From assembly GCF_009931435.1 (NCBI RefSeq), contig NZ_CP043414.1: 64,000 nt of DNA, one strand, 5' to 3'. Source of the DNA: Escherichia coli (GTDB taxonomy: Bacteria; Pseudomonadota; Gammaproteobacteria; Enterobacterales; Enterobacteriaceae). Made by a program: the position numbers and the translations under genes. Below the pieces are notes generated by a model, which was not told where the DNA came from, did not search any database, and saw only the letters and a list, made by a program, of their open reading frames with translations. Positions 5,833 through 64,000 of this stretch are shown piece by piece (the first letter of the stretch is position 1; every line of letters begins with the position of its first letter).

Positions 5833-6384
5833 ATGCAAACGAAAAAAAATGAAATTTGGGTGGGTATCTTTTTATTAGCAGCACTGCTGGCGGCGCTGTT
5901 TGTTTGCCTGAAGGCGGCGAACGTGACGTCCATGCGTACTGAACCAACCTACACGCTTTATGCGACGTTCGATAACATTGGCGGCCTGAAAGCGCGCTCT
6001 CCGGTCAGCATTGGTGGCGTTGTTGTGGGCCGGGTGGCGGATATTACGCTGGACCCGAAAACTTATCTGCCACGCGTAACGCTGGAAATTGAACAACGTT
6101 ATAACCACATTCCTGATACCAGTTCGCTGAGCATCCGTACTTCCGGCCTGCTGGGGGAACAATATCTGGCATTAAACGTCGGTTTTGAAGACCCGGAACT
6201 GGGGACTGCTATCCTGAAGGATGGCGATACAATCCAGGACACTAAGTCTGCGATGGTGCTGGAAGATCTCATTGGTCAGTTCCTTTACGGTAGTAAAGGC
6301 GATGACAATAAGAATAGTGGCGATGCGCCAGCTGCTGCGCCAGGTAATAATGAAACCACTGAACCTGTGGGTACAACGAAATAA
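5833..6384 (+). CDS. mlaD: MCE-domain phospholipid-binding protein MlaD
   Basis: ORF 5818..6384 trimmed to MQTKKNEIWVGIFLL; 183 aa. Confidence 0.92.
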   Translation: MQTKKNEIWVGIFLLAALLAALFVCLKAANVTSMRTEPTYTLYATFDNIGGLKARSPVSIGGVVVGRVADITLDPKTYLPRVTLEIEQRYNHIPDTSSLSIRTSGLLGEQYLALNVGFEDPELGTAILKDGDTIQDTKSAMVLEDLIGQFLYGSKGDDNKNSGDAPAAAPGNNETTEPVGTTK

Positions 6385-30820: not shown

Positions 30821-30896
30821 ATGCGGGATAAGGCGTTTACGCTGCATCCGGCATGGATTGCCTGATGCGACGCTGGCGCGTCTTATCAGGCCTACG
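30821..30896. repeat. REP pair (BIME) between infB and rbfA
   Basis: inverted copies of the GCCTGATGCGACGC...CTTATCAGGCCTAC REP motif. Confidence 0.8.
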
Positions 30897-48446: not shown

Positions 48447-48842
48447 TTATGAGTGGTCATTAAAGGCATCCTTAATCCACTCAACTTCATTCCCGGTGAA
48501 GGCTACCACATCGAACCGGCAATCCACAGTATCAAAACTCCCATTATGACGCGCGAGCCACAAGCGGGCAGTCTGTAATAATTTGTGTTGTTTGCTGCGG
48601 GTCACACTGGCTGCCGCACCACCGTAAAGGGCTGAGCGGCGGTAACGCACCTCGACAAAAACGGTGGTCCTGCCTTCACGCATTATCAGATCGATCTCGC
48701 CGCCACGCTCGTTCACGTTAGCGGCGACAAACCGCAGTCCTTTGCTCTCCAGCCAGCGACGCGCTTGTGCTTCCCACGCATCGCCGGTCTGTTTAGTGGT
48801 TAACTGGCGGGGACTACCTGACCTTGTTGGTACTGTAGCCAT
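48447..48842 (-). CDS. yraN: UPF0102 family protein YraN
   Basis: 131 aa [43 protein letters not shown]. Confidence 0.88.
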
Positions 48843-50836
48843 GATAACTTCCTGTTAATTACGCAATCCGGGTTAGCCGTCAGACTTCCGGTATTACCGT
48901 TGATTTCGAAACCCTGAACCTGGCGCATTTGTGAGAAATGATTTGCCAACGACCAGGCATCAACGCCCATCGCATACATGCGAGCCAGCGAATAATCGTT
49001 ATTCACCGCACTGAGCGCCTGCTGCATTAATGGCAGATTACCGCCCGCCAGCATCGGGATTTCGCTATATTGCAAACCTTCCATTTCCAGACGGAAATCC
49101 GGACCCGCGGTGCCTTGTGCGCTTCGGGAGCTTGCGTACAGCGTTGCACCGCTCTGGCTACCGTTACGCATGGCGATCATCGGTTTGATAAAAGCGATTT
49201 CACCCGGCGTTGCCACAATGTACACCGCATCGACACGACCGCCATTATTGGTGAACTGGTCATAGGTTGGCGTGGTTTGCAGCATTGGATTGTTGGTCGT
49301 TATGCCTGAATCGGTTGTCGCTCTGGGAGTAATCGGGCTACCGGTTAAAGCGATACCAGAACCACCGTTAACTCCCGCGCGTAATTCGCTGGTGGAACCA
49401 AATTTTTGTTGCAAAACGGTACCGCCGCCCAGCTTCTGCCACTCTTGCGCAAACGCATTGGCTACGCGATCGCCCAGCGAACTGCGAGGGATCAGCACCA
49501 GTGGCGCTTGTTTACCCTGGTCACGAATATGACGCGCTGCATCGCGCGCTTCGTCTTCCGGTGAAAGCGCGAAGTAACAAATATTGACGCGGTTTTCGAT
49601 ATTTTCCGGCTGGTTCAGTGCCAGCACGTTCAGCGGGGTGTTGCTTTTCAGTAACTCTTCAACGTTATTTTTCAGCAACGGACCGACCACAATACTCGCG
49701 CCATCCTGCTGAACCTGGTTGAGGATCTGGCTAAGCGGTTGTGATGAGGTATCATAAATTTTCAGCTCTGCGGATGGATTCGCGGGGGCGCTTACCGCCG
49801 CAGTGTTTGCCGCCGGGGCGCTTACAGGCACTGGTTGAGCCGCGGTTTCTTCGCCTGTCAGATCGCTAACCGAGGCTTGTGCCGGGCTGGCAACGCCGTC
49901 AACAGTTTGCTGCTGGGGTTGTTCTGCAACGTCTGCGATTGGTGCGGCAGTTGCCTGTGCCGCCACTGGCTGAGTGCCGATATTTTTCGCCGCTTCAAAG
50001 CCTTGCTGAATAGTGCGGCCAAATACTGCGGCCTGACCATTCAACGGCAATAACAGGGCTATTTTGTTGGTTGACGCTGGTTTAAATGCTTTTACGTTTA
50101 CCAACTGCGTAGGCAGCATTTTCGCGCCCGGGTTGTTCGGATAACGTTTCTGCCAGTCGGCGATCCCAGCTTTCATCATGTCGGGATCGTTACGGTTATC
50201 AAACCAGACGCGCTGCAGATCAAGCCAGCCTTGCAGAATATTTTCGTCGGCGTTGATCACCAGCGTATTCGCCTGGTCCTGAGTCATGGAGGAGAGTGCC
50301 TGCCATGTAGCATCAATATTCTGTTGCTTTTCTTTCGCGCCGAGCAGGGGTTCCTGAGCAATTAAGGCGCGCAGTAAATCAATGGAAGGACGCCCCTGAC
50401 TGGCATCGATTTTTGCCTGCCAGTAACGCGCCTGCTGGTTTTGATCTAAATCGGCAGGTGTGATTTTCGCCAGCAGGGTTTGTGCGCCAGCAAAATCTTT
50501 CTGCGCCAGCTTAATTTCTACTGCCAGAAGAGTTTTCTCGCGACGCTGGTAATCGTTCAGTTCCTGCGGCAGCTGGTTAAACAGCTCCACCGCCTGCCCG
50601 GTTTTACCTTCTTTCACCAGTGCACGAATGGCGAGTAATTGCCAGTTGATCCTGGTATCATCAGCGCTTTGCTGCATCTGCTGAAGATAAAAGGCAGAAT
50701 CAGCCTGCGCCGTGCCCTGCATATAGGCAGTGGACTGATCGGGAGTATGGGTGCCACAACCGGCGAAAATCAGGGCTGCCAGAACAACAGGCAGACAACG
50801 CGCGGCTTTCAAACGAGAAAATGTTGAGGGTACCAT
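48800..50836 (-). CDS. lpoA: PBP1A activator lipoprotein LpoA
   Basis: ORF 48800..50866 trimmed to [30 protein letters not shown] (lipobox); 678 aa; 3' end overlaps yraN start by 43 nt. Confidence 0.9.
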
Positions 50837-50900
50837 AATGTATCCAGTGATATTTTTTTTACGCAATGCTCAATATTAAATCGGCAATACGGACGACACA

Positions 50901-51764
50901 ATGAAACAACACCAATCGGCGGATAATTCTCAGGGCCAGCTTTACATTGTACCGACGCCAATCGGCAATCTGGCAGATATCACCCAGCGTGCGTTGGAGG
51001 TTTTACAGGCCGTTGATCTGATTGCCGCCGAGGATACGCGTCATACCGGTTTACTGCTGCAACATTTTGGAATTAACGCCAGGTTGTTCGCCTTGCACGA
51101 CCATAACGAACAACAGAAAGCCGAAACGTTACTGGCGAAGCTGCAGGAAGGGCAAAACATTGCGCTGGTGTCCGATGCCGGAACGCCACTAATTAACGAT
51201 CCCGGCTATCATCTGGTGCGTACCTGCCGAGAAGCGGGGATTCGCGTGGTGCCACTACCGGGGCCGTGTGCTGCTATCACTGCATTAAGTGCTGCGGGTT
51301 TACCATCCGATCGTTTTTGTTATGAAGGCTTTTTACCTGCCAAATCAAAAGGCCGCCGTGATGCGCTAAAAGCCATTGAAGCGGAGCCGCGCACGCTGAT
51401 TTTTTATGAATCGACCCACCGTCTGTTAGATAGCCTGGAAGATATCGTTGCGGTATTAGGCGAATCCCGCTACGTCGTTCTGGCGCGTGAGCTGACCAAA
51501 ACCTGGGAAACCATTCACGGCGCGCCCGTTGGCGAGCTGCTGGCGTGGGTCAAAGAAGATGAAAACCGTCGCAAAGGTGAAATGGTGCTGATTGTTGAAG
51601 GCCATAAAGCACAGGAAGAAGACTTACCTGCCGATGCCCTGCGCACGCTGGCGTTGTTACAGGCTGAGCTTCCGCTGAAGAAAGCGGCGGCGCTGGCGGC
51701 AGAGATTCACGGCGTGAAAAAAAACGCGCTGTATAAGTATGCGCTGGAACAGCAGGGGGAGTGA
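50901..51764 (+). CDS. rsmI: 16S rRNA C1402 2'-O-methyltransferase RsmI
   Basis: 287 aa [35 protein letters not shown]; divergent from lpoA. Confidence 0.93.
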
Positions 51765-51813
51765 TTACAGGCGTCGCAGCAAGAATAGAGCTGCAACGCC
51801 TACACCGGGCGAT

Positions 51814-52581
51814 TTAACGACGACACATCTCATCAATCATGCATGTGAAATAGTTATGCAGCCATAAAAACGAAGCCGGGATAGCGGTAGAGACTTTAGC
51901 CGTGAGAAAACGTTCTGTCGCATCCTGCTTTCCTTCGCCAGTCACCAGTAGCAAAACTTCGCGGGTATTGAGAATATCCTTCAGGCCTAAGGTGATCCCA
52001 CGAGTCACGGGGCGACCCGCGGTTTTTAACATCTCATGTTGCTGTGTTCTGGCATCAAGTTGACTGATATGGCAGGCCGGTTGCAGGCTTTCTCCCGGTT
52101 CGTTCAGCCCAAGATGACCGTTTTTCCCCAATCCGAGAACGCATAAATCCAGACCGCCTTTGCGCGCAATCAGGTTCGTTACCCGTTCGCACTCTGTCTC
52201 ATTTATCTCTTCGGAGCGAAAGCTGATGAGCTGGTCTTCACGTAGCCCCAGCGGCTGCACGATATGCTGTTGAAGGAAAGTTTCGCAGGTGCCAGGCATC
52301 GTTAATGGCAGATCCACCCATTCGTCGAGCTTCACGAAGGTGAGCTGGCTGACATCAACCTGCTGCTGGTGGATTTTTTCTACCAGATAATGATACGTCA
52401 GTAATGGCGTGGCTCCGGTCGCCAGGCAAATCACGGCATCCGGTTTGCTACGGATCACGGCCAATAAATATTCGCTGGCACGTTCACTTAACGCCGTATA
52501 GTTTTCAACTTGTTGAAGGGTTTGCACAGGATGAAATTCCTTTAGTAAAGAGGCACCACCAGACGCAGTGCCTCGTTCCAT
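51814..52581 (-). CDS. agaI: NagB-like galactosamine-6-phosphate deaminase/isomerase AgaI
   Basis: 255 aa ORF with NagB/Pgl-type sequence; last gene of aga cluster; exact start uncertain. Confidence 0.85.
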   Translation of the reverse strand: MERGTASGGASLLKEFHPVQTLQQVENYTALSERASEYLLAVIRSKPDAVICLATGATPLLTYHYLVEKIHQQQVDVSQLTFVKLDEWVDLPLTMPGTCETFLQQHIVQPLGLREDQLISFRSEEINETECERVTNLIARKGGLDLCVLGLGKNGHLGLNEPGESLQPACHISQLDARTQQHEMLKTAGRPVTRGITLGLKDILNTREVLLLVTGEGKQDATERFLTAKVSTAIPASFLWLHNYFTCMIDEMCRR

Positions 52582-54204: not shown

Positions 54205-54681
54205 TTAGTCAGGGATTTGTTCTTTTTGATCGCCGGGGACGTCCTGAATAAAAATATTCACACCGCGTTGTTTAATAAAGCGTAAGTCCGCGAGATCTTG
54301 ATCGTCGATATAAACTTTACTGCTGATTTGCTTTTTACCTTCCGAGAAATGCATATTGCCGACGTTGACATCTTTCAGGTCAATGCCACCTTCTATCAAT
54401 TTACGTACCGTTTGCGGCGTACGGCAAATCAAGAAGATTTTCTGATGCGGTGCAGCTTTGCCGATGACGTTAATGGTTTTTTCGATAGTAAAGAAACGAA
54501 TGCCAAAGCCGTAGGTTTCCGCGGTAATACCCATTAATTTTTGTTGAATATCATCGTTAGCGACAACATCATCCACGACTACCAGCAGATTTGCACCGAT
54601 GGTAGATGTCCAGGTCACACCAACCTGACCGTGAACCAGACGGTTATCAATACGGGTTAAGAGAATATTTGGACTGCTCAT
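54205..54681 (-). CDS. agaB: PTS galactosamine-specific EIIB component AgaB
   Basis: 158 aa MSSPNILLTRIDNRLVHGQVGVTW. Confidence 0.92.
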   Translation of the reverse strand: MSSPNILLTRIDNRLVHGQVGVTWTSTIGANLLVVVDDVVANDDIQQKLMGITAETYGFGIRFFTIEKTINVIGKAAPHQKIFLICRTPQTVRKLIEGGIDLKDVNVGNMHFSEGKKQISSKVYIDDQDLADLRFIKQRGVNIFIQDVPGDQKEQIPD

Positions 54682-54847: not shown

Positions 54848-55720
<873 letters not shown>

Positions 55721-56875
55721 TTATGCCTGCCACGGATGAATGATTACGCCTTGCACCACGCGGTTAACGGTGCCGCTGGCTGATGGGGTATCCGGCGTAT
55801 TGCCCATATGCAGCGACTGCATCAGTGCAAACGTCTGGGCGTACATCAGGAAGCAAAATGCCTGCTCAACGTCGATAAAGTGACGTGACGGCGGCAGGAT
55901 GATATGTGGACCGGCGGTAATAACGTCGTTGCCTTCCGCGGCGATGGCGATTACGCGCATTGCCTGGTTGTCACGGCGGAGTTCTGCCAGCAGATCAAGA
56001 TCATACTGACGCGTATAGGGGTGGCTGGAGACAAACACCACCACCAGCGTTTCGTTATCGACCAGCGATTTCGGGCCATGACGGAATCCGGTCGGGGAAT
56101 CATAAAAGGCCGCCAGTTTACCCGCCGTCAGTTCCAGTACTTTCAGCGCCGACTCGCGTGCTGCGCCCTGTAAGCCACCGCTGCCGAGATAAACGATCCG
56201 TTTCCACGGTGCGTAACCAAACACACCTTCGCTGAAATCGCCCAGTGAGGTCAGGATCGCCTGGCAACGATCCGCTACGTCGCGGAAGGTCTGGCTATTG
56301 ATTGTCTCAGGTGCGAAAACCGCGAGGCAGCTGGCCATCATAGTGGTAATGCTGCTTGTCATTGCAAAGCCGCGATCGTGCGTTTCTGCGGGCATCAGCA
56401 GGGCAAACGCGTTGTCGCTGTTGATCGCGTTTTGGTAAAGAGCGCCCGCTTCGTTGCAGGTGATCGGCAGGTGATAGCATTCCGGTACAAACTGATTCGC
56501 CAGTTCCACGGCGGCGACGCTTTCCGGGCTGTTGCCAGATCGACCGAAGGAGATCAACAGCAGTGGATGAGCTGGATTCAGGTAGTCCATCGGATTAGTG
56601 ACCAGATCGGTGGTCGGTACGGCGCTGAAGTTTTTACCGGTATGGCTGGCGAGCCACGGCGCGATGATATCACCGATAAATGCCGAGGTTCCGGCTCCGG
56701 TCAGGATGATCCGCAGATTCTCTTTGCGCAGTAACGGTTCAAGGAAGTTATTGAGCGCGGAACGTAGCGCGTCGATGTTGGTGAGTGAACGGATCCATGC
56801 GCGAGGCTGATGGCGGATCTCTTCTTCAGTCCATGTGCCGGTGGTGGCGGCCGCTGGGGTGTAATTTTCTGGCAT
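55721..56875 (-). CDS. agaS: SIS-domain galactosamine-6-phosphate deaminase/isomerase AgaS
   Basis: 384 aa with two SIS domains. Confidence 0.93.
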   Translation of the reverse strand: MPENYTPAAATTGTWTEEEIRHQPRAWIRSLTNIDALRSALNNFLEPLLRKENLRIILTGAGTSAFIGDIIAPWLASHTGKNFSAVPTTDLVTNPMDYLNPAHPLLLISFGRSGNSPESVAAVELANQFVPECYHLPITCNEAGALYQNAINSDNAFALLMPAETHDRGFAMTSSITTMMASCLAVFAPETINSQTFRDVADRCQAILTSLGDFSEGVFGYAPWKRIVYLGSGGLQGAARESALKVLELTAGKLAAFYDSPTGFRHGPKSLVDNETLVVVFVSSHPYTRQYDLDLLAELRRDNQAMRVIAIAAEGNDVITAGPHIILPPSRHFIDVEQAFCFLMYAQTFALMQSLHMGNTPDTPSASGTVNRVVQGVIIHPWQA

Positions 56876-56928
56876 AACTCAATCCTTAGTCTGATGAACT
56901 TGACTTCCGGCATTGCAGGCTTCGCTTG

Positions 56929-57045
56929 CCTTTCGTTTCATTTCACTTGGTGATTCGTTTCGTTGATTAAAATCTATAGAAAAGAAATCGAAAGTTCAAT
57001 GGAGAAAAAAGAAATAAAACGAAATTTGTGATCGTTGAAAGAAAA
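56929..57045 (-). promoter_or_regulatory. agaS promoter region with AgaR-type TTTC-repeat operator motifs
   Basis: CGTTTCATTTCACTTGGTGATTCGTTTCGTT and GAAATCGAAAG...AAAACGAAATTTG repeats upstream of agaS. Confidence 0.55.
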
Positions 57046-57099
57046 GACAAGGGAAGATTAAAGGATTGCGTGATAACGTCGCTATGTGTACCGATTGCT

Positions 57100-57146
57100 G
57101 GAAGCGGCGTACCGTAGAGCGGATAAGACGCGCCAGCGTCGCATTC
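57100..57146. repeat. partial REP element in agaA-agaS intergenic region
   Basis: GGATAAGACGCGCCAGCGTCGCAT REP-like half. Confidence 0.5.
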
Positions 57147-57225
57147 GACACCACTGCACAGATTAAAACGAAAGAAAAAGAAAGGCCTTACGGGGGAAGT
57201 GAAGGCCCAATAAAGGAGCAAACCA

Positions 57226-58359
57226 TCAAAACGAAGCTAATTGACCCTGAATCCAGATTTGTTGCACATGCAGTCCGCTATTCAGCGCAACGACGCTGGC
57301 GCGTTTGCCCGGTTTAAGTGATCCCAGAACACCATCAACACCCAGCATACGCGCCGGATGCAGCGATGCCATATGGATGGCTTCCGCAGGCGTTACGCCC
57401 GTCAACTCGACCATGTTGCGCACTGCCGCATCGACAGACAGCGTACTGCCCGCCAGCCCACCGGACGCGGTACGGACAACGCCACCGTGCATCTGCACTT
57501 CTTCACCACATAACGTATAGCGACCATCCGGCATCCCGGCTGCCTGCATCGCGTCGGTGATGAGCACGATTCTCTCTTTCGCACAGCAACAACACAGCGA
57601 CATCGCCGCCGGATGAACATGATGCCCATCGGCTATCAGTTCCAGCCAGGCGCGCTTGTCCGTTAAACCCGCGCCAACCATTCCCGGTTCGCGGTGATGT
57701 AATCCTGTCATCCCGTTATAGCAATGCACCAGGCCGTCTGCGCCAGCATCAAATGCGGCGCGGGTTTGTTGCCAGGTTGCTGCGCTATGTCCCAGCATTA
57801 CCCGCACGTTCTGCTGTTTAAGATGACGAATGGCTTGTAACGCGCCCGTTTTTTCCGGTGCCAGCGCCACCACGCGCAAGGTATGCCGTGAAACAGCAAT
57901 CAATTGATCCAGCTCGGCAATTTCCAGCTCGCGAAACAGCTCCGGCGGATGTGCGCCTTTATTCTGCGGCGTGAAGTACGGCCCTTCGAGATAACTCCCC
58001 AGCACTTGCGCACCAGGTCCACCGCGCTGGCAGCGTAGCGCAATACGTTCCAGCGCCGCATGAATGGTATTAAGCGGCGCGGTTACGGTAGTCGGCAACC
58101 AACTGCCGACACCTTCCCGTGCCTTGTGCATTGCCAGCTTGTCGAGCGCATCCGGCGCGTCATCCATAACATCAACGCCCGCACCACCGTGTACATGGGT
58201 ATCGATATAAGCGGGGCAGAGCAGTTCCGCATCGCGTTCAGTCACGCCCACTGGAATCGGTTCGATTGCTGCGATTACACCGTCAGCAATACACAACTGA
58301 TGGTCATCGAGCCATCCCTCTTCAGTCAGCAGCCTTCTGGCGCGCAGAACGTGTGTCAT
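57226..58359 (-). CDS. agaA: N-acetylgalactosamine-6-phosphate deacetylase AgaA (full length)
   Basis: ORF 57226..58380 trimmed to MTHVLRARRLLTEEGWLDDHQL with SD GAGGAAGGAA; 377 aa; NagA-type HxH metal motif (DTHVHGG); start overlaps agaF stop (ATGA). Confidence 0.9.
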   Translation of the reverse strand: MTHVLRARRLLTEEGWLDDHQLCIADGVIAAIEPIPVGVTERDAELLCPAYIDTHVHGGAGVDVMDDAPDALDKLAMHKAREGVGSWLPTTVTAPLNTIHAALERIALRCQRGGPGAQVLGSYLEGPYFTPQNKGAHPPELFRELEIAELDQLIAVSRHTLRVVALAPEKTGALQAIRHLKQQNVRVMLGHSAATWQQTRAAFDAGADGLVHCYNGMTGLHHREPGMVGAGLTDKRAWLELIADGHHVHPAAMSLCCCCAKERIVLITDAMQAAGMPDGRYTLCGEEVQMHGGVVRTASGGLAGSTLSVDAAVRNMVELTGVTPAEAIHMASLHPARMLGVDGVLGSLKPGKRASVVALNSGLHVQQIWIQGQLASF

Positions 58360-58790
58360 ATTCCTTCCTCGACCGGACATTCTTCATGGCAGCGGCCTAA
58401 CTCGTCTACCAGACTGGTCAGCCCACGGTGTCCACACTCCAGCGCCTGCACACGGAATTCTTCACCGCTTAACCCTTCGCGCTCCAGCACCATTTCCAGT
58501 AACAGTTGCAAATTGGTGCCGGTGATCACTTCATAGCCCGGTTTTTGCATCGCCAGCGTTGAAGCCACGCGAAACGGTGTGCCGCCCAGCAAATCTGTCA
58601 GAAAAACAATGCCGTCTTCACAATCCAGTTTGGCAATGGCTTCTTCAAGCTGCGATGTAAGCAGCGCAGTGCTTGAGGTTTCCGGAAAATCAATGGCGAT
58701 AAACTGCGACTGCTCGCCGAGGATTTGCTTCATTGCTTTTTCCATGCCGCTGGCAAATCCGCCATGCCCTGTCAAAATAATACTTAACAT
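58356..58790 (-). CDS. agaF: PTS N-acetylgalactosamine-specific EIIA component AgaF
   Basis: 144 aa MLSIILTGHGGFASGMEKAMKQILGEQ. Confidence 0.9.
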   Translation of the reverse strand: MLSIILTGHGGFASGMEKAMKQILGEQSQFIAIDFPETSSTALLTSQLEEAIAKLDCEDGIVFLTDLLGGTPFRVASTLAMQKPGYEVITGTNLQLLLEMVLEREGLSGEEFRVQALECGHRGLTSLVDELGRCHEECPVEEGI

Positions 58791-58807
58791 CTAATACCTC
58801 ATTGTAT

Positions 58808-59692
58808 TTAAAGGAAATGACAGAATTTACCGACGATGCCAAGAACCACGGTAACCGCAATCAGGCGCAGCGGACTCCAGCCGCGGCGTACCAGCCAGAA
58901 CATGGTCAGGGTGTAGACCAGCGGTAAGAAGGCAGGCATCAGTTTGTCGATAACGTCAGCCTGCAGCTTAACCACTGCATCGCCCGCCGTGATTTCCAGC
59001 GTGGTGCTTAAACGAACATAGGTTGCCACCAGCGCGCCGATCACCGTCATCCCAACGATAGACGCTGCATGGCCGACTTTTTTGGTATTCGCTTTAATGA
59101 GTGGGATCGCCGCCACGCCCATGCGGTAAGCATAATGCGCCAGACCAAAACGCAGCCCCAGGTGTACCACGTTAAACAGCACAATAAACACGACTGCGCC
59201 AAGAATAGAGCCTTGCAATGCCAGACTGGCACCAATCCCGCCACAAATCGGCAGTAACGTTAGCCAGAACATGGCATCGCCAATCCCACCGAGCGGCGCA
59301 CCGACGGCAATTTTGGTGCTCTGAATACTGTTAACGTCCTGCTTAGAACGCTCCATCGCGAGGATAATGCCAATAACAAACGTCACCAGAAACGGATGGG
59401 TATTGAAGAAACCCATATGCCCCTTCATGGCGCGCGCCAGGTCGCGTTTATTAGTGTGGATCTTTTTCAGAGCAGGCAGCAGACCGTACAACCAGCCGGA
59501 AGCCTGCATACGTTCGTAGTTAAAAGACGCTTGTAACAGCATGGAACGCCAGGCGACGCGGTTGATATCTTTTTTTGTTAGCTCCGCGCCAATGCTCTGA
59601 TCTTCATACACGTTTTCATTGACGCCTGTCAGTAGTGTTTCTTCGTTTTCACTGACGTTCGGCAGGGTAGTTTGATTAGATGCCATCTTCAA
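58808..59692 (-). CDS. agaE: PTS N-acetylgalactosamine-specific EIID component AgaE
   Basis: 294 aa ORF (alternative Met 2 codons in at 59686); paralog of AgaD (shared LLQASFNYERMQA); overlaps agaW 3' end. Confidence 0.88.
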   Translation of the reverse strand: MKMASNQTTLPNVSENEETLLTGVNENVYEDQSIGAELTKKDINRVAWRSMLLQASFNYERMQASGWLYGLLPALKKIHTNKRDLARAMKGHMGFFNTHPFLVTFVIGIILAMERSKQDVNSIQSTKIAVGAPLGGIGDAMFWLTLLPICGGIGASLALQGSILGAVVFIVLFNVVHLGLRFGLAHYAYRMGVAAIPLIKANTKKVGHAASIVGMTVIGALVATYVRLSTTLEITAGDAVVKLQADVIDKLMPAFLPLVYTLTMFWLVRRGWSPLRLIAVTVVLGIVGKFCHFL

Positions 59693-60455
59693 ATTCCTCT
59701 TTCTGTGCCGCAGGTTGAGTCGGTTCAGGAGATTTACGCAGCAGGTCGATCAGCGCCATCGCCAGCGCGGCGGCAGCAATAGCCAGCACCGGTAACTTGA
59801 GCCAGGCGGCGGCAACGAAGCCCAGGATGAAGTAGGGGATATAGACGTTTTTCATCATGATTTTCAGCAGCACGGCAAAACCGATTGCTGGCATGATGCC
59901 GCCCGCGACGCCAAGGCCGTCGATTAACCGTTGCGGCAGGACATCAATGATGGTTTTTGCATGCTCCGCGCCGAAGTAGATAGGCAGGAAAGCGCAGAGA
60001 AAATAGAACGTGCCGAGTGCCAGCAATGCCAGATAGTTCACGCGTTCAATGCCGCGAGTATCGGCGTTCTCCGCCATCCGGTCGCAGCGGGACATCACGC
60101 CAGACATCACCGAGAACAGGAAGGTAATCCCCATCTGTACTGCGACAGCGAAAGGTACGGCGACACCGACCGCGACATCCGGTTTCACGCCAGTAGTAAT
60201 GGCAAACGCCGTGCCGACGATAGTTCCGATAATCACGTTAGGCGGCTGTGCGCCCGCCAGCGGTGCCAGCCCCATCCACACCAGTTCCAGCGTACCGCCG
60301 GTTAAAATACCGGTATGCAGATCGCCAAGCACCAACCCAACTAACGGGCCGAGGACCACCGGGCGGTGCATATGGGTTAGGCCGTTAAACATATCCAGGC
60401 CAGCGATAAAGGCGATAATGCCCAACGCAAATGCCTGCAACAGACTGATTTCCAT
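59676..60455 (-). CDS. agaW: PTS N-acetylgalactosamine-specific EIIC component AgaW (full length)
   Basis: 259 aa MEISLLQAFALGIIAFIAGLDMFNG; paralog of AgaC. Confidence 0.9.
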   Translation of the reverse strand: MEISLLQAFALGIIAFIAGLDMFNGLTHMHRPVVLGPLVGLVLGDLHTGILTGGTLELVWMGLAPLAGAQPPNVIIGTIVGTAFAITTGVKPDVAVGVAVPFAVAVQMGITFLFSVMSGVMSRCDRMAENADTRGIERVNYLALLALGTFYFLCAFLPIYFGAEHAKTIIDVLPQRLIDGLGVAGGIMPAIGFAVLLKIMMKNVYIPYFILGFVAAAWLKLPVLAIAAAALAMALIDLLRKSPEPTQPAAQKEEFEDGI

Positions 60456-60961: not shown

Positions 60962-62242
60962 TTATTGGCCTTCACAGGCTGTGTGGTACTGCGCCAGGAT
61001 GTCCTGAATATGGTTGATAATGAGTTCCCGTGGCGTTGGCTGCAGCTCGCCGGAGCGAACTTTCACGTATTGCAGCGGCAGGTACTGACTGATGAGCGGC
61101 AGCGGAATTGGCGCATCCGCCAGGTTACGAACCAGATGAGCGAAAGCGTCATCAATCTGGCTGTCCGGCCAGTAATAGCGCACGCGATCCGAGTAGCTAT
61201 AACCACGCGCCAGACGACGCGCGTTGCCGTCACCGTGGTAGTGGCTTTGCCAGTATTCCGGGCGGTCGAGCATCACGTTTTCCAGCACCTGACGCAGACC
61301 GGAACAGGCTTTTGCTGGCACCAGTTCTTCTTCAATCGCCGCCAGAGAGAACAGAGCTTCACGCAGGGCGAAGGTCAGCGCTGGGCCAACTTTCAGAATG
61401 GCAAAGTGGTCAATCACCAGCTGGCGCAGCGATTGCGGCGTTTGGTAATCGGTAGAGTGCGCTTCGAAAATCAGCGTTTCGTAGTTTTCGACCATCTGGC
61501 TTAAGGCGGTCGCTTTAGCTGGCTGATAATCAATAACGTTGGTGTGATCGAATTCGACGCCGGGTTGTACCACCAGAGCAATGATGCGTGGCCAGATGGC
61601 ATTCAGACCTTGCTTTTCAAAGGCGTGACGATGGGCTTCCAGCGTGGCGCGGGCGGCATCCGGCGTAGTGACCGCCAGCTCGCTTAAGGTTTCATGCGCG
61701 CCGCCAGGTACCGGCACTTCGGTACCAATGACATACACCAGATCGGCTTCGCCAAAGTGTTCACGGCAGGTTTCTTCCGCGACTTTAGCCAGTCGGGCGG
61801 CGCGTTCAGCCACGATGTCATCGGTTAAGGGAACCGGATCGTCCTGACAGGACATGCTGCAATCAAGGTGAATTTTTTTGAATCCTGCCGCCACGTAGCT
61901 TTTAATCAAATCATCGGCATTGGCCATCGCCTGAGCTGCAGGCAGGTTTTGCCAGCGGTTTGGCCCCAGATGATCGCCACCCAGAATCAACGCGTCTTGT
62001 GGGAAATTCAATGAGTCGGCGAGCTGACAAACAAAGCCGCGAAAATCGGCGGGTGTCATTCCGGTATAACCACCGAACTGGTCCACCTGATTGGATGTCG
62101 CTTCAATCAGTAACGGTGTTTGGTTTACACTGGCGTAGCGGATTGCAGCTTCCAGCACCAGCGGGTGTGCGGAACAAACGGCATAAATCCCATTTGTTTT
62201 GCCCTCTTTGTGCTGCCTCACCATTTCTGTCAGATGTTTCAC
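60962..62242 (-). CDS. kbaZ: tagatose-bisphosphate aldolase non-catalytic subunit KbaZ (AgaZ)
   Basis: GTG start at 62242 with SD GGAGAGG, giving (M)[26 protein letters not shown]; 426 aa; ORF-track ATG at 62308 is a possible longer alternative. Confidence 0.85.
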
Positions 62243-62490
62243 TTTCCTCTCCAGTTCAGATTGCTGCGATATTAATCTTTCGTTTTGTTTCAGTTGATAC
62301 TGCGTCATGGTGAGATAAAAATAAAACGAAAGATAATAGTTTTCTGATCTGATTCACAAAAGAAACATAATGAAAGTCACTGAAACGAGAGTAGCTTGCG
62401 TCAATGGGCAAGGTGGGCTTGCATTTGCTCAATAGAAAGGCGTAAATAGGCAAAACGAAATGAAACGAAAGTTTTACGAAAGGACTTACT
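62243..62490. promoter_or_regulatory. divergent kbaZ / agaR promoter region with AgaR-type operator repeats
   Basis: ATAAAACGAAAGATAATAGTTTTC, GAAACATAATGAAAGTCACTGAAACGAG and AAACGAAATGAAACGAAAGTTTTACGAAAGG (TTTCGTTT-type repeats on both strands). Confidence 0.6.
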
Positions 62491-63300
62491 ATGAGTAATA
62501 CCGACGCTTCAGGCGAGAAGCGAGTGACAGGCACCAGCGAGCGACGAGAACAAATCATTCAGCGCCTGCGACAGCAAGGGAGTGTGCAGGTTAACGATCT
62601 GTCGGCATTGTATGGCGTATCTACTGTGACGATCCGCAACGATCTGGCTTTTCTGGAAAAGCAGGGGATCGCTGTGCGGGCCTATGGCGGCGCGTTGATC
62701 TGCGATAGCACGACGCCGTCAGTCGAGCCATCAGTGGAAGATAAAAGCGCGCTGAACACTGCGATGAAACGCAGCGTTGCGAAAGCTGCCGTTGAGTTGA
62801 TTCAGCCAGGTCATCGGGTGATCCTCGATTCCGGGACCACCACGTTTGAGATTGCTCGTCTGATGCGCAAGCACACCGACGTAATTGCGATGACCAATGG
62901 TATGAACGTAGCCAATGCACTGCTGGAAGCAGAAGGCGTTGAACTTCTTATGACCGGCGGGCATCTGCGGCGTCAGTCGCAATCTTTTTACGGCGATCAG
63001 GCTGAACAATCGCTACAAAATTACCACTTTGATATGCTTTTTCTCGGCGTAGATGCGATCGATCTGGAGCGCGGCGTCAGCACGCATAATGAAGATGAAG
63101 CCCGTTTAAACCGTCGGATGTGCGAAGTTGCGGAACGGATCATTGTGGTCACCGATTCCAGTAAGTTCAACCGTTCCAGTTTACATAAGATCATTGATAC
63201 TCAACGTATCGACATGATCATTGTTGATGAAGGCATTCCTGCGGATAGTCTGGAAGGCCTGCGAAAGGCTGGGGTTGAAGTGATTCTGGTCGGGGAGTGA
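62491..63300 (+). CDS. agaR: DeoR-family repressor of the aga cluster, AgaR
   Basis: 269 aa; N-terminal HTH ...[17 protein letters not shown]...; divergent from kbaZ. Confidence 0.93.
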
Positions 63301-63832
63301 GAAATGGCGCCCGTAGCTCAACACGGATGTGTTCGGCGGGCATTGTTCACTGACCTTTTACAGCCTGTTTTCTGCTCAAATTAGAAACTTCAGCAAAGGT
63401 AATGCAAATGCATTATTAACAGCAGAAAGCGCCAGAACCAACGAAAAAAGAGAGCATGTTTCCCATTTTGCGAGGCGCTTTCCAAATCACCCGCTCAGTC
63501 CCCTCGCGTTGCAGTGCTAAAAGCACTATTTTGCAAATTTGTGACCTTCTTCACTCTCCCAAAAGGCGGTGATCTCACGGTGGGGATCCACTTTCTGCTT
63601 TCGCTTTTCTGCCGTTAGCACTCGCTATTTCGGCATCTCTTCTTTTCACTTTTTCAGTTTGTCATTTTCATTTGCGGTCAACCGAAAGTTCTGGAGTCGA
63701 TTTTTCCAGGTTTCAACGCCGTTGTCGCGTTCACAAATTCACTTCTTTTCTTCTGATGTAATGCATTCAAAAGAAAATGAAAGCTGCAAAATGCAAGAAT
63801 GCAACGAAATACTTTTTCAGGGAGCGATAAAC

Positions 63833-64000
63833 ATGCTAGATAGCCTAAGACGCCGCGAACAAATCATTGATTTGTTATGTGCCCAGGGAAGCGTACGCGT
63901 TGAGCCGCTCAGCATCCATTTTGGTGTCTCATCGGTCACGATCCGCAATGACTTACGGTATCTGGAGCAAAAAGGTTGCGTCATGCGTTCCTATGGCGGT
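63833..64000 (+). CDS. DeoR-family (AgaR-like) transcriptional regulator, N-terminal 56 codons only; runs off window end
   Basis: ATG 63833 with SD CAGGGAG 7 nt upstream; MLDSLRRREQIIDLLCAQGSVRVEPLSIHFGVSSVTIRNDLRYLEQKGCVMRSYGG, shares SVTIRNDL and R(A/S)YGG with AgaR; not in ORF track because no stop in window. Confidence 0.7.
   Translation, partial: MLDSLRRREQIIDLLCAQGSVRVEPLSIHFGVSSVTIRNDLRYLEQKGCVMRSYGG

Follow-up and report, generated by a model that had tools for sequence, protein, structure and literature searches.

Which sequences around the aga/gam operons of this Escherichia chromosome are read by the DeoR-family repressor AgaR, and is the partial REP element found among them linked to the deletion that interrupts the same cluster in E. 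coli K-12? Both questions go back to a first-pass annotation of the stretch of DNA analysed here, 64,000 nt of contig NZ_CP043414.1 (assembly GCF_009931435.1; hereafter the window), which had placed AgaR-type operators in front of agaS and in the divergent promoter region of kbaZ and agaR and had suggested that the REP element may mark a recombination-prone spot close to the K-12 deletion. The sequence comparisons reported below argue strongly that the TTTC-repeat clusters of these two regions are AgaR operators that would repress the promoters of agaS (PS), kbaZ (PZ) and, by autoregulation, agaR itself (PR), and we hold this reading with high confidence. The operator system as such is already known, having been described for E. 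coli K-12 in 2004.

A complete aga/gam cluster lies in the window in reverse orientation, as judged from its open reading frames, the RefSeq annotation of near-identical loci, and tblastn. The minus strand carries kbaZ (agaZ; 60962-62242), then agaV, agaW, agaE, and agaF between kbaZ and agaA (57226-58380), followed by agaS (55721-56875), kbaY (54848-55708), agaB (54205-54681), agaC and agaD between agaB and agaI, and finally agaI (51814-52581). On the plus strand, agaR (62491-63300) encodes the DeoR-family repressor that would read the boxes; by tblastn, its product is 100% identical to AgaR of K-12, and it also passes the AgaR equivalog models of NCBIfam (PRK09802, 577 bits with a cut-off of 351; NF040755 AgaR, 465 bits). 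Two intergenic regions are at issue, the agaA-agaS spacer (56876-57225, 350 bp) and the kbaZ-agaR spacer (62243-62490, 248 bp). At the far end of the cluster, rsmI directly follows agaI (junction 51765-51813), and the yraHIJK fimbrial genes, which lie downstream of agaI in K-12, are missing both in the window and in RMDEC465.

Of 5426 complete E. coli genomes, 5313 contain the agaS spacer, in most cases at 90-95% identity. Over the housekeeping stretch from lpoA to rsmI (48800-51760), only 25 of the 5426 genomes reach at least 95% identity and 5399 of the remaining ones stand at 90-95%; by this measure, the window belongs to a divergent Escherichia lineage that is classified as E. coli.

TTTC-repeat boxes in the two spacers

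The clustered, phased TTTCRTTT-like repeats that had been reported for both spacers are real. The window contains 18 copies of TTTCRTTT, where shuffles give 7.8 ± 2.7, and 9 of the 18 matches fall within the two spacers, which make up 0.9% of the window. The window was also searched, allowing up to 3 mismatches and with shuffles as the null, for a 24-nt degenerate AgaR consensus, WRMMTTTCRTTTYRTTTYNYTTKK, which we take to be the one of Ray & Larson 2004; a full-text literature search with the consensus string returned nothing relevant. Five matches lie in the 598 bp of spacers (two boxes without mismatch, two with 1, and one with 3) and one in the other 63 kb, while shuffles give an expectation of 0.15 for all 64 kb. 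This sixth match (5835-5858; 3 mismatches, 21.4 bits with the matrix introduced below) sits in coding DNA at the junction of two genes, presumably mlaE and mlaD as read from their translation, and was set aside as a chance match. Without any motif being given, the best words common to both spacers are identical at 15 of 16, 17 of 20, and 20 of 24 positions, values that 0-1 of 100 dinucleotide shuffles attained. Unconstrained expectation-maximisation on these spacers together with a third region (63301-63832; see below) yielded a poly-A composition model and was discarded, its place being taken by the shared-word test against shuffles and by phylogenetic footprinting.

A matrix was built from 163 distinct non-Escherichia sites; these had been picked with the consensus, and the motif shape that they show is no independent discovery. 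The six strongest spacer boxes take the top six scores of the whole window with this matrix (22.7-35.8 bits). In all, seven boxes of the form CTTTC-R-TTT-Y-R-TTTC were mapped, every one of them within the agaA-agaS or the kbaZ-agaR spacer. The information profile of the matrix reads CTTTC / GTTTY / RTTTC / nYTT, with peaks every 5 nt within a box and a 10-nt step from the strong CTTTC unit to the strong TTTC unit.

Conservation beyond Escherichia was assessed on 80 loci, belonging to about 25 Enterobacterales genera, which were obtained by an AgaR-protein scan of one genome per species and in which the aga genes were located by tblastn. With up to 2 mismatches and the two spacers as delimited per locus, these orthologous loci hold 193 consensus matches, 180 of them within the spacers (67 in 21.3 kb of sequence upstream of agaS and 113 in 18.2 kb of kbaZ-agaR spacer). 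The remaining 1.34 Mb contain 13, of which 12 lie just upstream of agaR at loci whose spacer boundaries could not be set; this leaves a single match elsewhere in around 1.3 Mb. Alignments with one sequence per genus show otherwise diverged spacers with conserved islands at the boxes, promoter-like hexamers, CRP-like sites, and ribosome-binding sites, and the AgaR boxes are the main conserved blocks of both spacers throughout the roughly 25 genera. Box order, strand, and spacing are conserved as well, following the pattern OZ1-55-OZ2-44-OZ3-95/96-OR on one side and OS1-64-OS2 and OS1-94/95-OS3 on the other (distances in nt), so that the phasing of the repeats is evident at two scales, as 5-nt peaks inside each box and as inter-box distances kept across genera. 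Between the window and K-12, all 24-nt boxes are identical, and the kbaZ-agaR spacer agrees at 244 of 248 positions with every box unchanged. In Cedecea, Pantoea, Phytobacter, and some Yersinia and Serratia (loci L073, L057, L077, and others), agaF lies directly upstream of agaS with no agaA match between the two genes, and these loci still retain the agaS promoter boxes.

Consensus matches, shared words, cross-genus conservation, box identity with K-12, and the identity of AgaR itself thus converge on the boxes being AgaR operators, and the proposal that both the agaS promoter and the divergent promoter between kbaZ and agaR carry such operators gains support from the K-12 identity and the conservation in about 25 genera. 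Read towards agaS, the agaS spacer consists of a terminator hairpin, a REP remnant, a CRP-like site, OS3, a -35 hexamer, OS2, a -10 hexamer, OS1, the Shine-Dalgarno sequence, and the ATG. A strict sigma-70 promoter scan found no promoter in this spacer and only poorly conserved candidates in the kbaZ-agaR spacer; since the scan was uninformative at both, promoter hexamers were assigned from conservation. The putative core promoter PS (56971-56999, minus strand) comprises -35 TTGAAC (56999-56994), a 17-nt spacer, and -10 TAGATT (56976-56971), both hexamers being conserved across genera, and would start transcription near 56964. OS1 (TGCCTTTCGTTTCATTTCACTTGG, 56927-56950, plus strand; 0 mismatches, 32.6 bits) is identical in K-12 and conserved in 22 aligned sequences, and would lie downstream of the agaS start at about +14 to +37. 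OS2 is a variant box (CTTTCGATTTCTTTTC, 56979-56994, minus strand; conserved block AAAAGAAAnnGAAAG) situated almost wholly between the -35 and -10 of PS; it lies at a constant 64 nt from OS1 and shares one base, the last, with the -35 hexamer. Its matrix score is only 7.2 bits because one extra base shifts the repeat frame, its K-12 counterpart TTTCAGTTTC differs at two bases, and the promoter itself may account for some of its conservation. OS3 (CAAATTTCGTTTTATTTCTTTTTT, 57005-57028, minus strand; 1 mismatch, 31.3 bits), again identical in K-12 and conserved across genera at 94-95 nt from OS1, lies upstream of the -35 hexamer at about -41 to -64 of PS. Next to it is a putative CRP site (TGTGATCGTTGAAAGA, 57027-57042, plus strand; 7 of 10 consensus positions) centred about -70 relative to the predicted start, the left half of which, TGTGATC, is conserved across genera while the right half is weak. 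Of the repeat range originally given for this spacer, 56929-57045, the last stretch, 57037-57045, lacks conservation outside Escherichia.

The kbaZ-agaR spacer begins on the kbaZ side with OZ1 (AATCTTTCGTTTTGTTTCAGTTGA, 62274-62297, plus strand; 3 mismatches, 28.5 bits), a conserved box, identical in K-12, that would cover both the kbaZ start (near 62290) and the -10 hexamer (CAGTAT, 62302-62297). OZ2 (TATCTTTCGTTTTATTTTTATCTC, 62312-62335, minus strand; 22.7 bits, conserved block TAAAAATAAAACGAAAGATAAT) covers the likely -35 region of PZ at 55 nt from OZ1 in most loci and is identical in K-12; by the matrix, it is like OS2 a weaker variant of the AgaR box. A CRP site (TCTGATCTGATTCACA, 62343-62358, plus strand; 9 of 10 consensus positions), identical in K-12 and part of a conserved GATCTGTTTCACAAAAG block, is placed at about -61 of the predicted PZ start and is abutted by OZ3 (TGACTTTCATTATGTTTCTTTTGT, 62356-62379, minus strand; 1 mismatch, 27.6 bits), which is conserved as well and stands 44 nt from OZ2 in 39 loci. 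At class I CRP-assisted promoters, a TGTGA-N6-TCACA site would be centred near -61.5 or -71.5, and how the sites at PZ and PS compare with this depends on the predicted starts. The putative core promoter PR (62419-62448, plus strand) has weak hexamers, -35 TTGCAT (62419-62424) and -10 TAAATA (62443-62448), lying in conserved blocks GGCTTGCATT and GTTAATAGG. OR (AAACTTTCGTTTCATTTCGTTTTG, 62451-62474, minus strand; 0 mismatches) has the highest matrix score in the window, 35.8 bits, is identical in K-12, and is found 95-96 nt from OZ3 in 46 loci. It would cover the agaR transcription start, predicted near 62455, which is the position that autoregulation requires and agrees with the earlier suggestion of it. 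The repeat range first proposed here, 62315-62483, misses OZ1; within it, the set at 62453-62483 corresponds to OR for the most part, and its GAAAG at 62477-62483 overlaps the conserved Shine-Dalgarno sequence of agaR.

A second AgaR-like gene next to agaR

Directly downstream of agaR, a second DeoR-family gene starts at 63834 and runs past the end of the window (63834-64000). Its product is 44% identical to AgaR, has the recognition helix VS(T/S)VTIRNDL in common with it, and passes the general AgaR model of NCBIfam while failing the E. coli AgaR model. Annotations of the adjoining DNA (L001 13634-20625) list a ROK family protein, a Gfo/Idh/MocA oxidoreductase, and a ChbG deacetylase after the paralogue, and the island also includes a 6-phospho-beta-glucosidase, ChbC, and a PTS IIB. 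In K-12, the place of the paralogue and this chb-like PTS / 6-phospho-beta-glucosidase island is taken by the toxin-antitoxin pair prlF-yhaV. The arrangement occurs in only 3 complete E. coli genomes, and several Citrobacter species and Enterobacteriaceae RIT691 have it next to agaR as well.

The region between the two regulator genes had been expected to share the motif of the spacers and to be recovered with them in a joint motif search. The two spacers do share words above shuffles, whereas 63301-63832 has no word in common with either of them above that level, and the best AgaR-matrix score in 63301-63833 is 11.1 bits as opposed to 23-36 bits for the six top boxes. On the shared-word test and the matrix score, we therefore rejected it as a carrier of the same motif; it is the promoter region of the second AgaR-like gene. 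This promoter has TTTC-type boxes of its own and a CRP-like site, TGTGACCTTCTTCACT, that are kept across Escherichia and Citrobacter (conserved elements at window 63542-63557, 63598-63609, 63680-63688, and 63768-63785), and a conserved box, CTTTCGGTAGGTTTCT, precedes the chb-like operon (L001 20841-20864). These TTTC boxes and the chb-operon box are probably operators of the paralogue, and cross-talk between them and AgaR is possible.

With its shared recognition helix, its match to the NCBIfam AgaR model, and TTTC boxes at its own promoter, the paralogue starting at 63834 is the obvious example of another DeoR-family protein that might be the main reader of the seven boxes in place of AgaR, and it is a very unlikely one: The gene is present in only 8 of 82 loci (81 related ones apart from K-12) and the boxes in all of them, its own region is without the motif above chance, and K-12, which does without the paralogue, has identical 24-nt boxes with AgaR as the repressor (PMC3668189). 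AgaR thus stays the favoured reader of the boxes in both spacers.

Terminator tail and REP remnant of the agaS spacer

The agaA side of the agaS spacer carries a terminator-like hairpin (57183-57208, minus strand; -10.2 kcal/mol, z -1.83) followed by the T-tract TTTCTTTTTCTTTCGTTTT (57160-57182, minus strand). This is the combination of a G+C-rich hairpin and a T-run that characterizes intrinsic terminators, and hairpin plus tail are conserved in other genera with compensatory changes in the stem; a terminator pattern scan missed the hairpin because its loop is longer than 8 nt. The TTTC run at 57160-57187 is the T-tract and tail of this terminator, and part of it (GGCCTTTCTTTTTCTTTCGTTTTA, 57164-57187, minus strand; 18.0 bits) resembles an AgaR box, here called candidate OS4. 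At 19 loci, other genera have an OS4-like box at a distance of 101-103 nt upstream of OS3, compared to about 2 unrelated matches of at least 14 bits in 1.33 Mb, while in Escherichia the candidate lies at 159 nt, displaced by the REP insertion. That the agaA T-tract may be a fourth, distal AgaR box and that the paralogues may cross-bind each other's operators is a tentative proposal, which we rate as rather doubtful. If AgaR did bind 57164-57187, it could loop to the PS boxes or could tie the termination of the operon upstream to the repression of the next one.

That the terminator T-tract also reaches 18 bits with the matrix, that the spacers are A+T-rich, and that expectation-maximisation collapsed to a poly-A model would fit TTTC/GAAA runs that are low-complexity A+T-rich promoter DNA (UP-element-like or curved) without any specific reader, but this is extremely improbable given that dinucleotide-preserving shuffles fail to reproduce the matches, that the C and G/A positions of the boxes are conserved in about 25 genera while the flanking spacer has diverged, and that matches are nearly absent from 1.3 Mb of flanks holding many other promoters and terminators.

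The partial REP element noted in the agaS intergenic region is genuine, as its intact K-12 orthologue and its dispersed copies show. It comprises a decayed REP (57114-57149, minus strand) and a 16-nt remnant of a second, inverted REP (57093-57108, minus strand), a partner that is largely deleted, in place of the intact REP pair of K-12. The 41-nt K-12 element is a dispersed repeat, for which E. coli genomes have a median of 20 places each, a second copy of the same REP type, GATGCGACGCTGGCGCGTCTTATC, lies at window 30864-30887, and no REP was seen in the agaS spacer of other genera in alignments with one sequence per genus. K-12 REP1 folds at -21.8 kcal/mol (z -3.55). The window copy has stem-breaking substitutions, its fold (z -0.43) is no better than those of shuffles, and it forms no stable palindromic REP hairpin of about 35 nt; it is therefore a remnant and not an intact REP. 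Like the REP/BIME elements of E. coli, it belongs to a dispersed 41-nt repeat, located 3' of an operon between the terminator and the next promoter, and unlike them it has a disrupted stem that does not form the defining hairpin. A reading of this zone as an RNA element was dropped, given that Rfam hits were sub-threshold only (naRNA4, overlapping the REP zone, at 20.8 bits with a gathering score of 59.5; suhB at 16.6 bits).

The K-12 deletion corresponds to window 57785-60079 (agaW' to agaA'), with both ends in coding DNA, of agaA and agaW. Its junction shows an imperfect 6-nt repeat, GC(G/A)ACC, within agaW and agaA, which suggests that the deletion was microhomology-mediated. The agaS spacer lies 559 bp away from the junction and the REP about 640 bp, and the REP element consequently does not mark the spot of the deletion. 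It is hardly credible that the REP acted as the recombination hotspot behind the agaW'-agaA' deletion of K-12: REP/BIME elements are indeed variable and it is in the REP zone that the spacers of K-12 and the window differ most, yet the agaS spacer is intact at 350 bp in both, and the mapped ends lie at the coding-DNA microhomology instead.

Regulatory logic of the aga/gam cluster

Previous work on K-12 had already established that AgaR binds and represses PR, PZ, and PS (Ray & Larson 2004, as cited in PMC3668189 and PMC4694137). In agaR deletants, expression of agaA and agaS is constitutive (PMC3668189), kbaZ-agaVWEFA and agaS-kbaY-agaBCDI are derepressed when AgaR is lost (PMC10101011), and AgaR binding or AgaR-dependent repression is known for both K-12 and E. 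coli C (PMC3668189, PMC4694137, PMC10101011). The window shares with the K-12 regulon the same genes, spacers, 24-nt boxes, and repressor protein as well as the same logic of two repressed catabolic operons plus autoregulation, with CRP sites alongside. It differs from K-12 in its complete 13-gene cluster without the 2.3-kb deletion, in a decayed REP where K-12 has the intact pair, and in the second AgaR-like gene that takes the place of prlF-yhaV.

Based on the identity of boxes and repressor with those of K-12 and on the K-12 literature, steric exclusion is the most likely mechanism. Each operator is a run of 5-nt units, (C)TTTC / GTTTY / RTTTC / nYTT, with two strong TTTC units one helical turn apart and thus on the same DNA face, an arrangement well suited to an oligomeric DeoR-type protein whose winged-helix domains would bind in tandem. 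When no inducer is present, AgaR on the boxes would sterically exclude RNA polymerase and probably CRP too, so that kbaZ-agaVWEFA, agaS-kbaY-agaBCDI, and agaR itself would be off. Cells growing on N-acetylgalactosamine or galactosamine would form an effector, presumably a phosphorylated intermediate, that releases AgaR, and cAMP-CRP would then help the weak promoters to fire. Boxes that stand about 95 nt apart could plausibly bind AgaR cooperatively or be joined by looping.

Operators of similar design have been described for other DeoR-family regulators. The predicted motifs of RhaR groups are imperfect direct repeats with a 10-11 bp period (PMC3870299) and resemble those of AgaR in that two such repeats are separated by about one helical turn, each promoter has several sites, and a sugar catabolic cluster is controlled locally; the TTTC unit is specific to AgaR, and an intermediate unit of half strength gives its boxes a 5-nt sub-period. 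TagR of E. coli Nissle 1917 likewise belongs to the DeoR family, and its operators tagO1 and tagO2 combine CTTTC/GAAAG sequences with a neighbouring CRP site in a divergent spacer (PMC12226905). The authors of that study pointed out their likeness to the aga cluster, where they noted paired CRP and repressor sites (PMC12226905). TagR is another regulator for another sugar, D-tagatose, and its predicted operators are 19 nt long with an inverted CTTTC...GAAAG arrangement.

The box-like terminator tail and the neighbouring paralogue are only mildly new points, which may go beyond the 2004 description. The value of our analysis is mainly one of annotation, in that the cis-regulatory sites of a textbook-level local regulon are now placed in a divergent Escherichia genome. 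The map of seven boxes with their strands and fixed spacing should be useful for building AgaR-based expression switches and for predicting GalNAc utilisation in enteric isolates.
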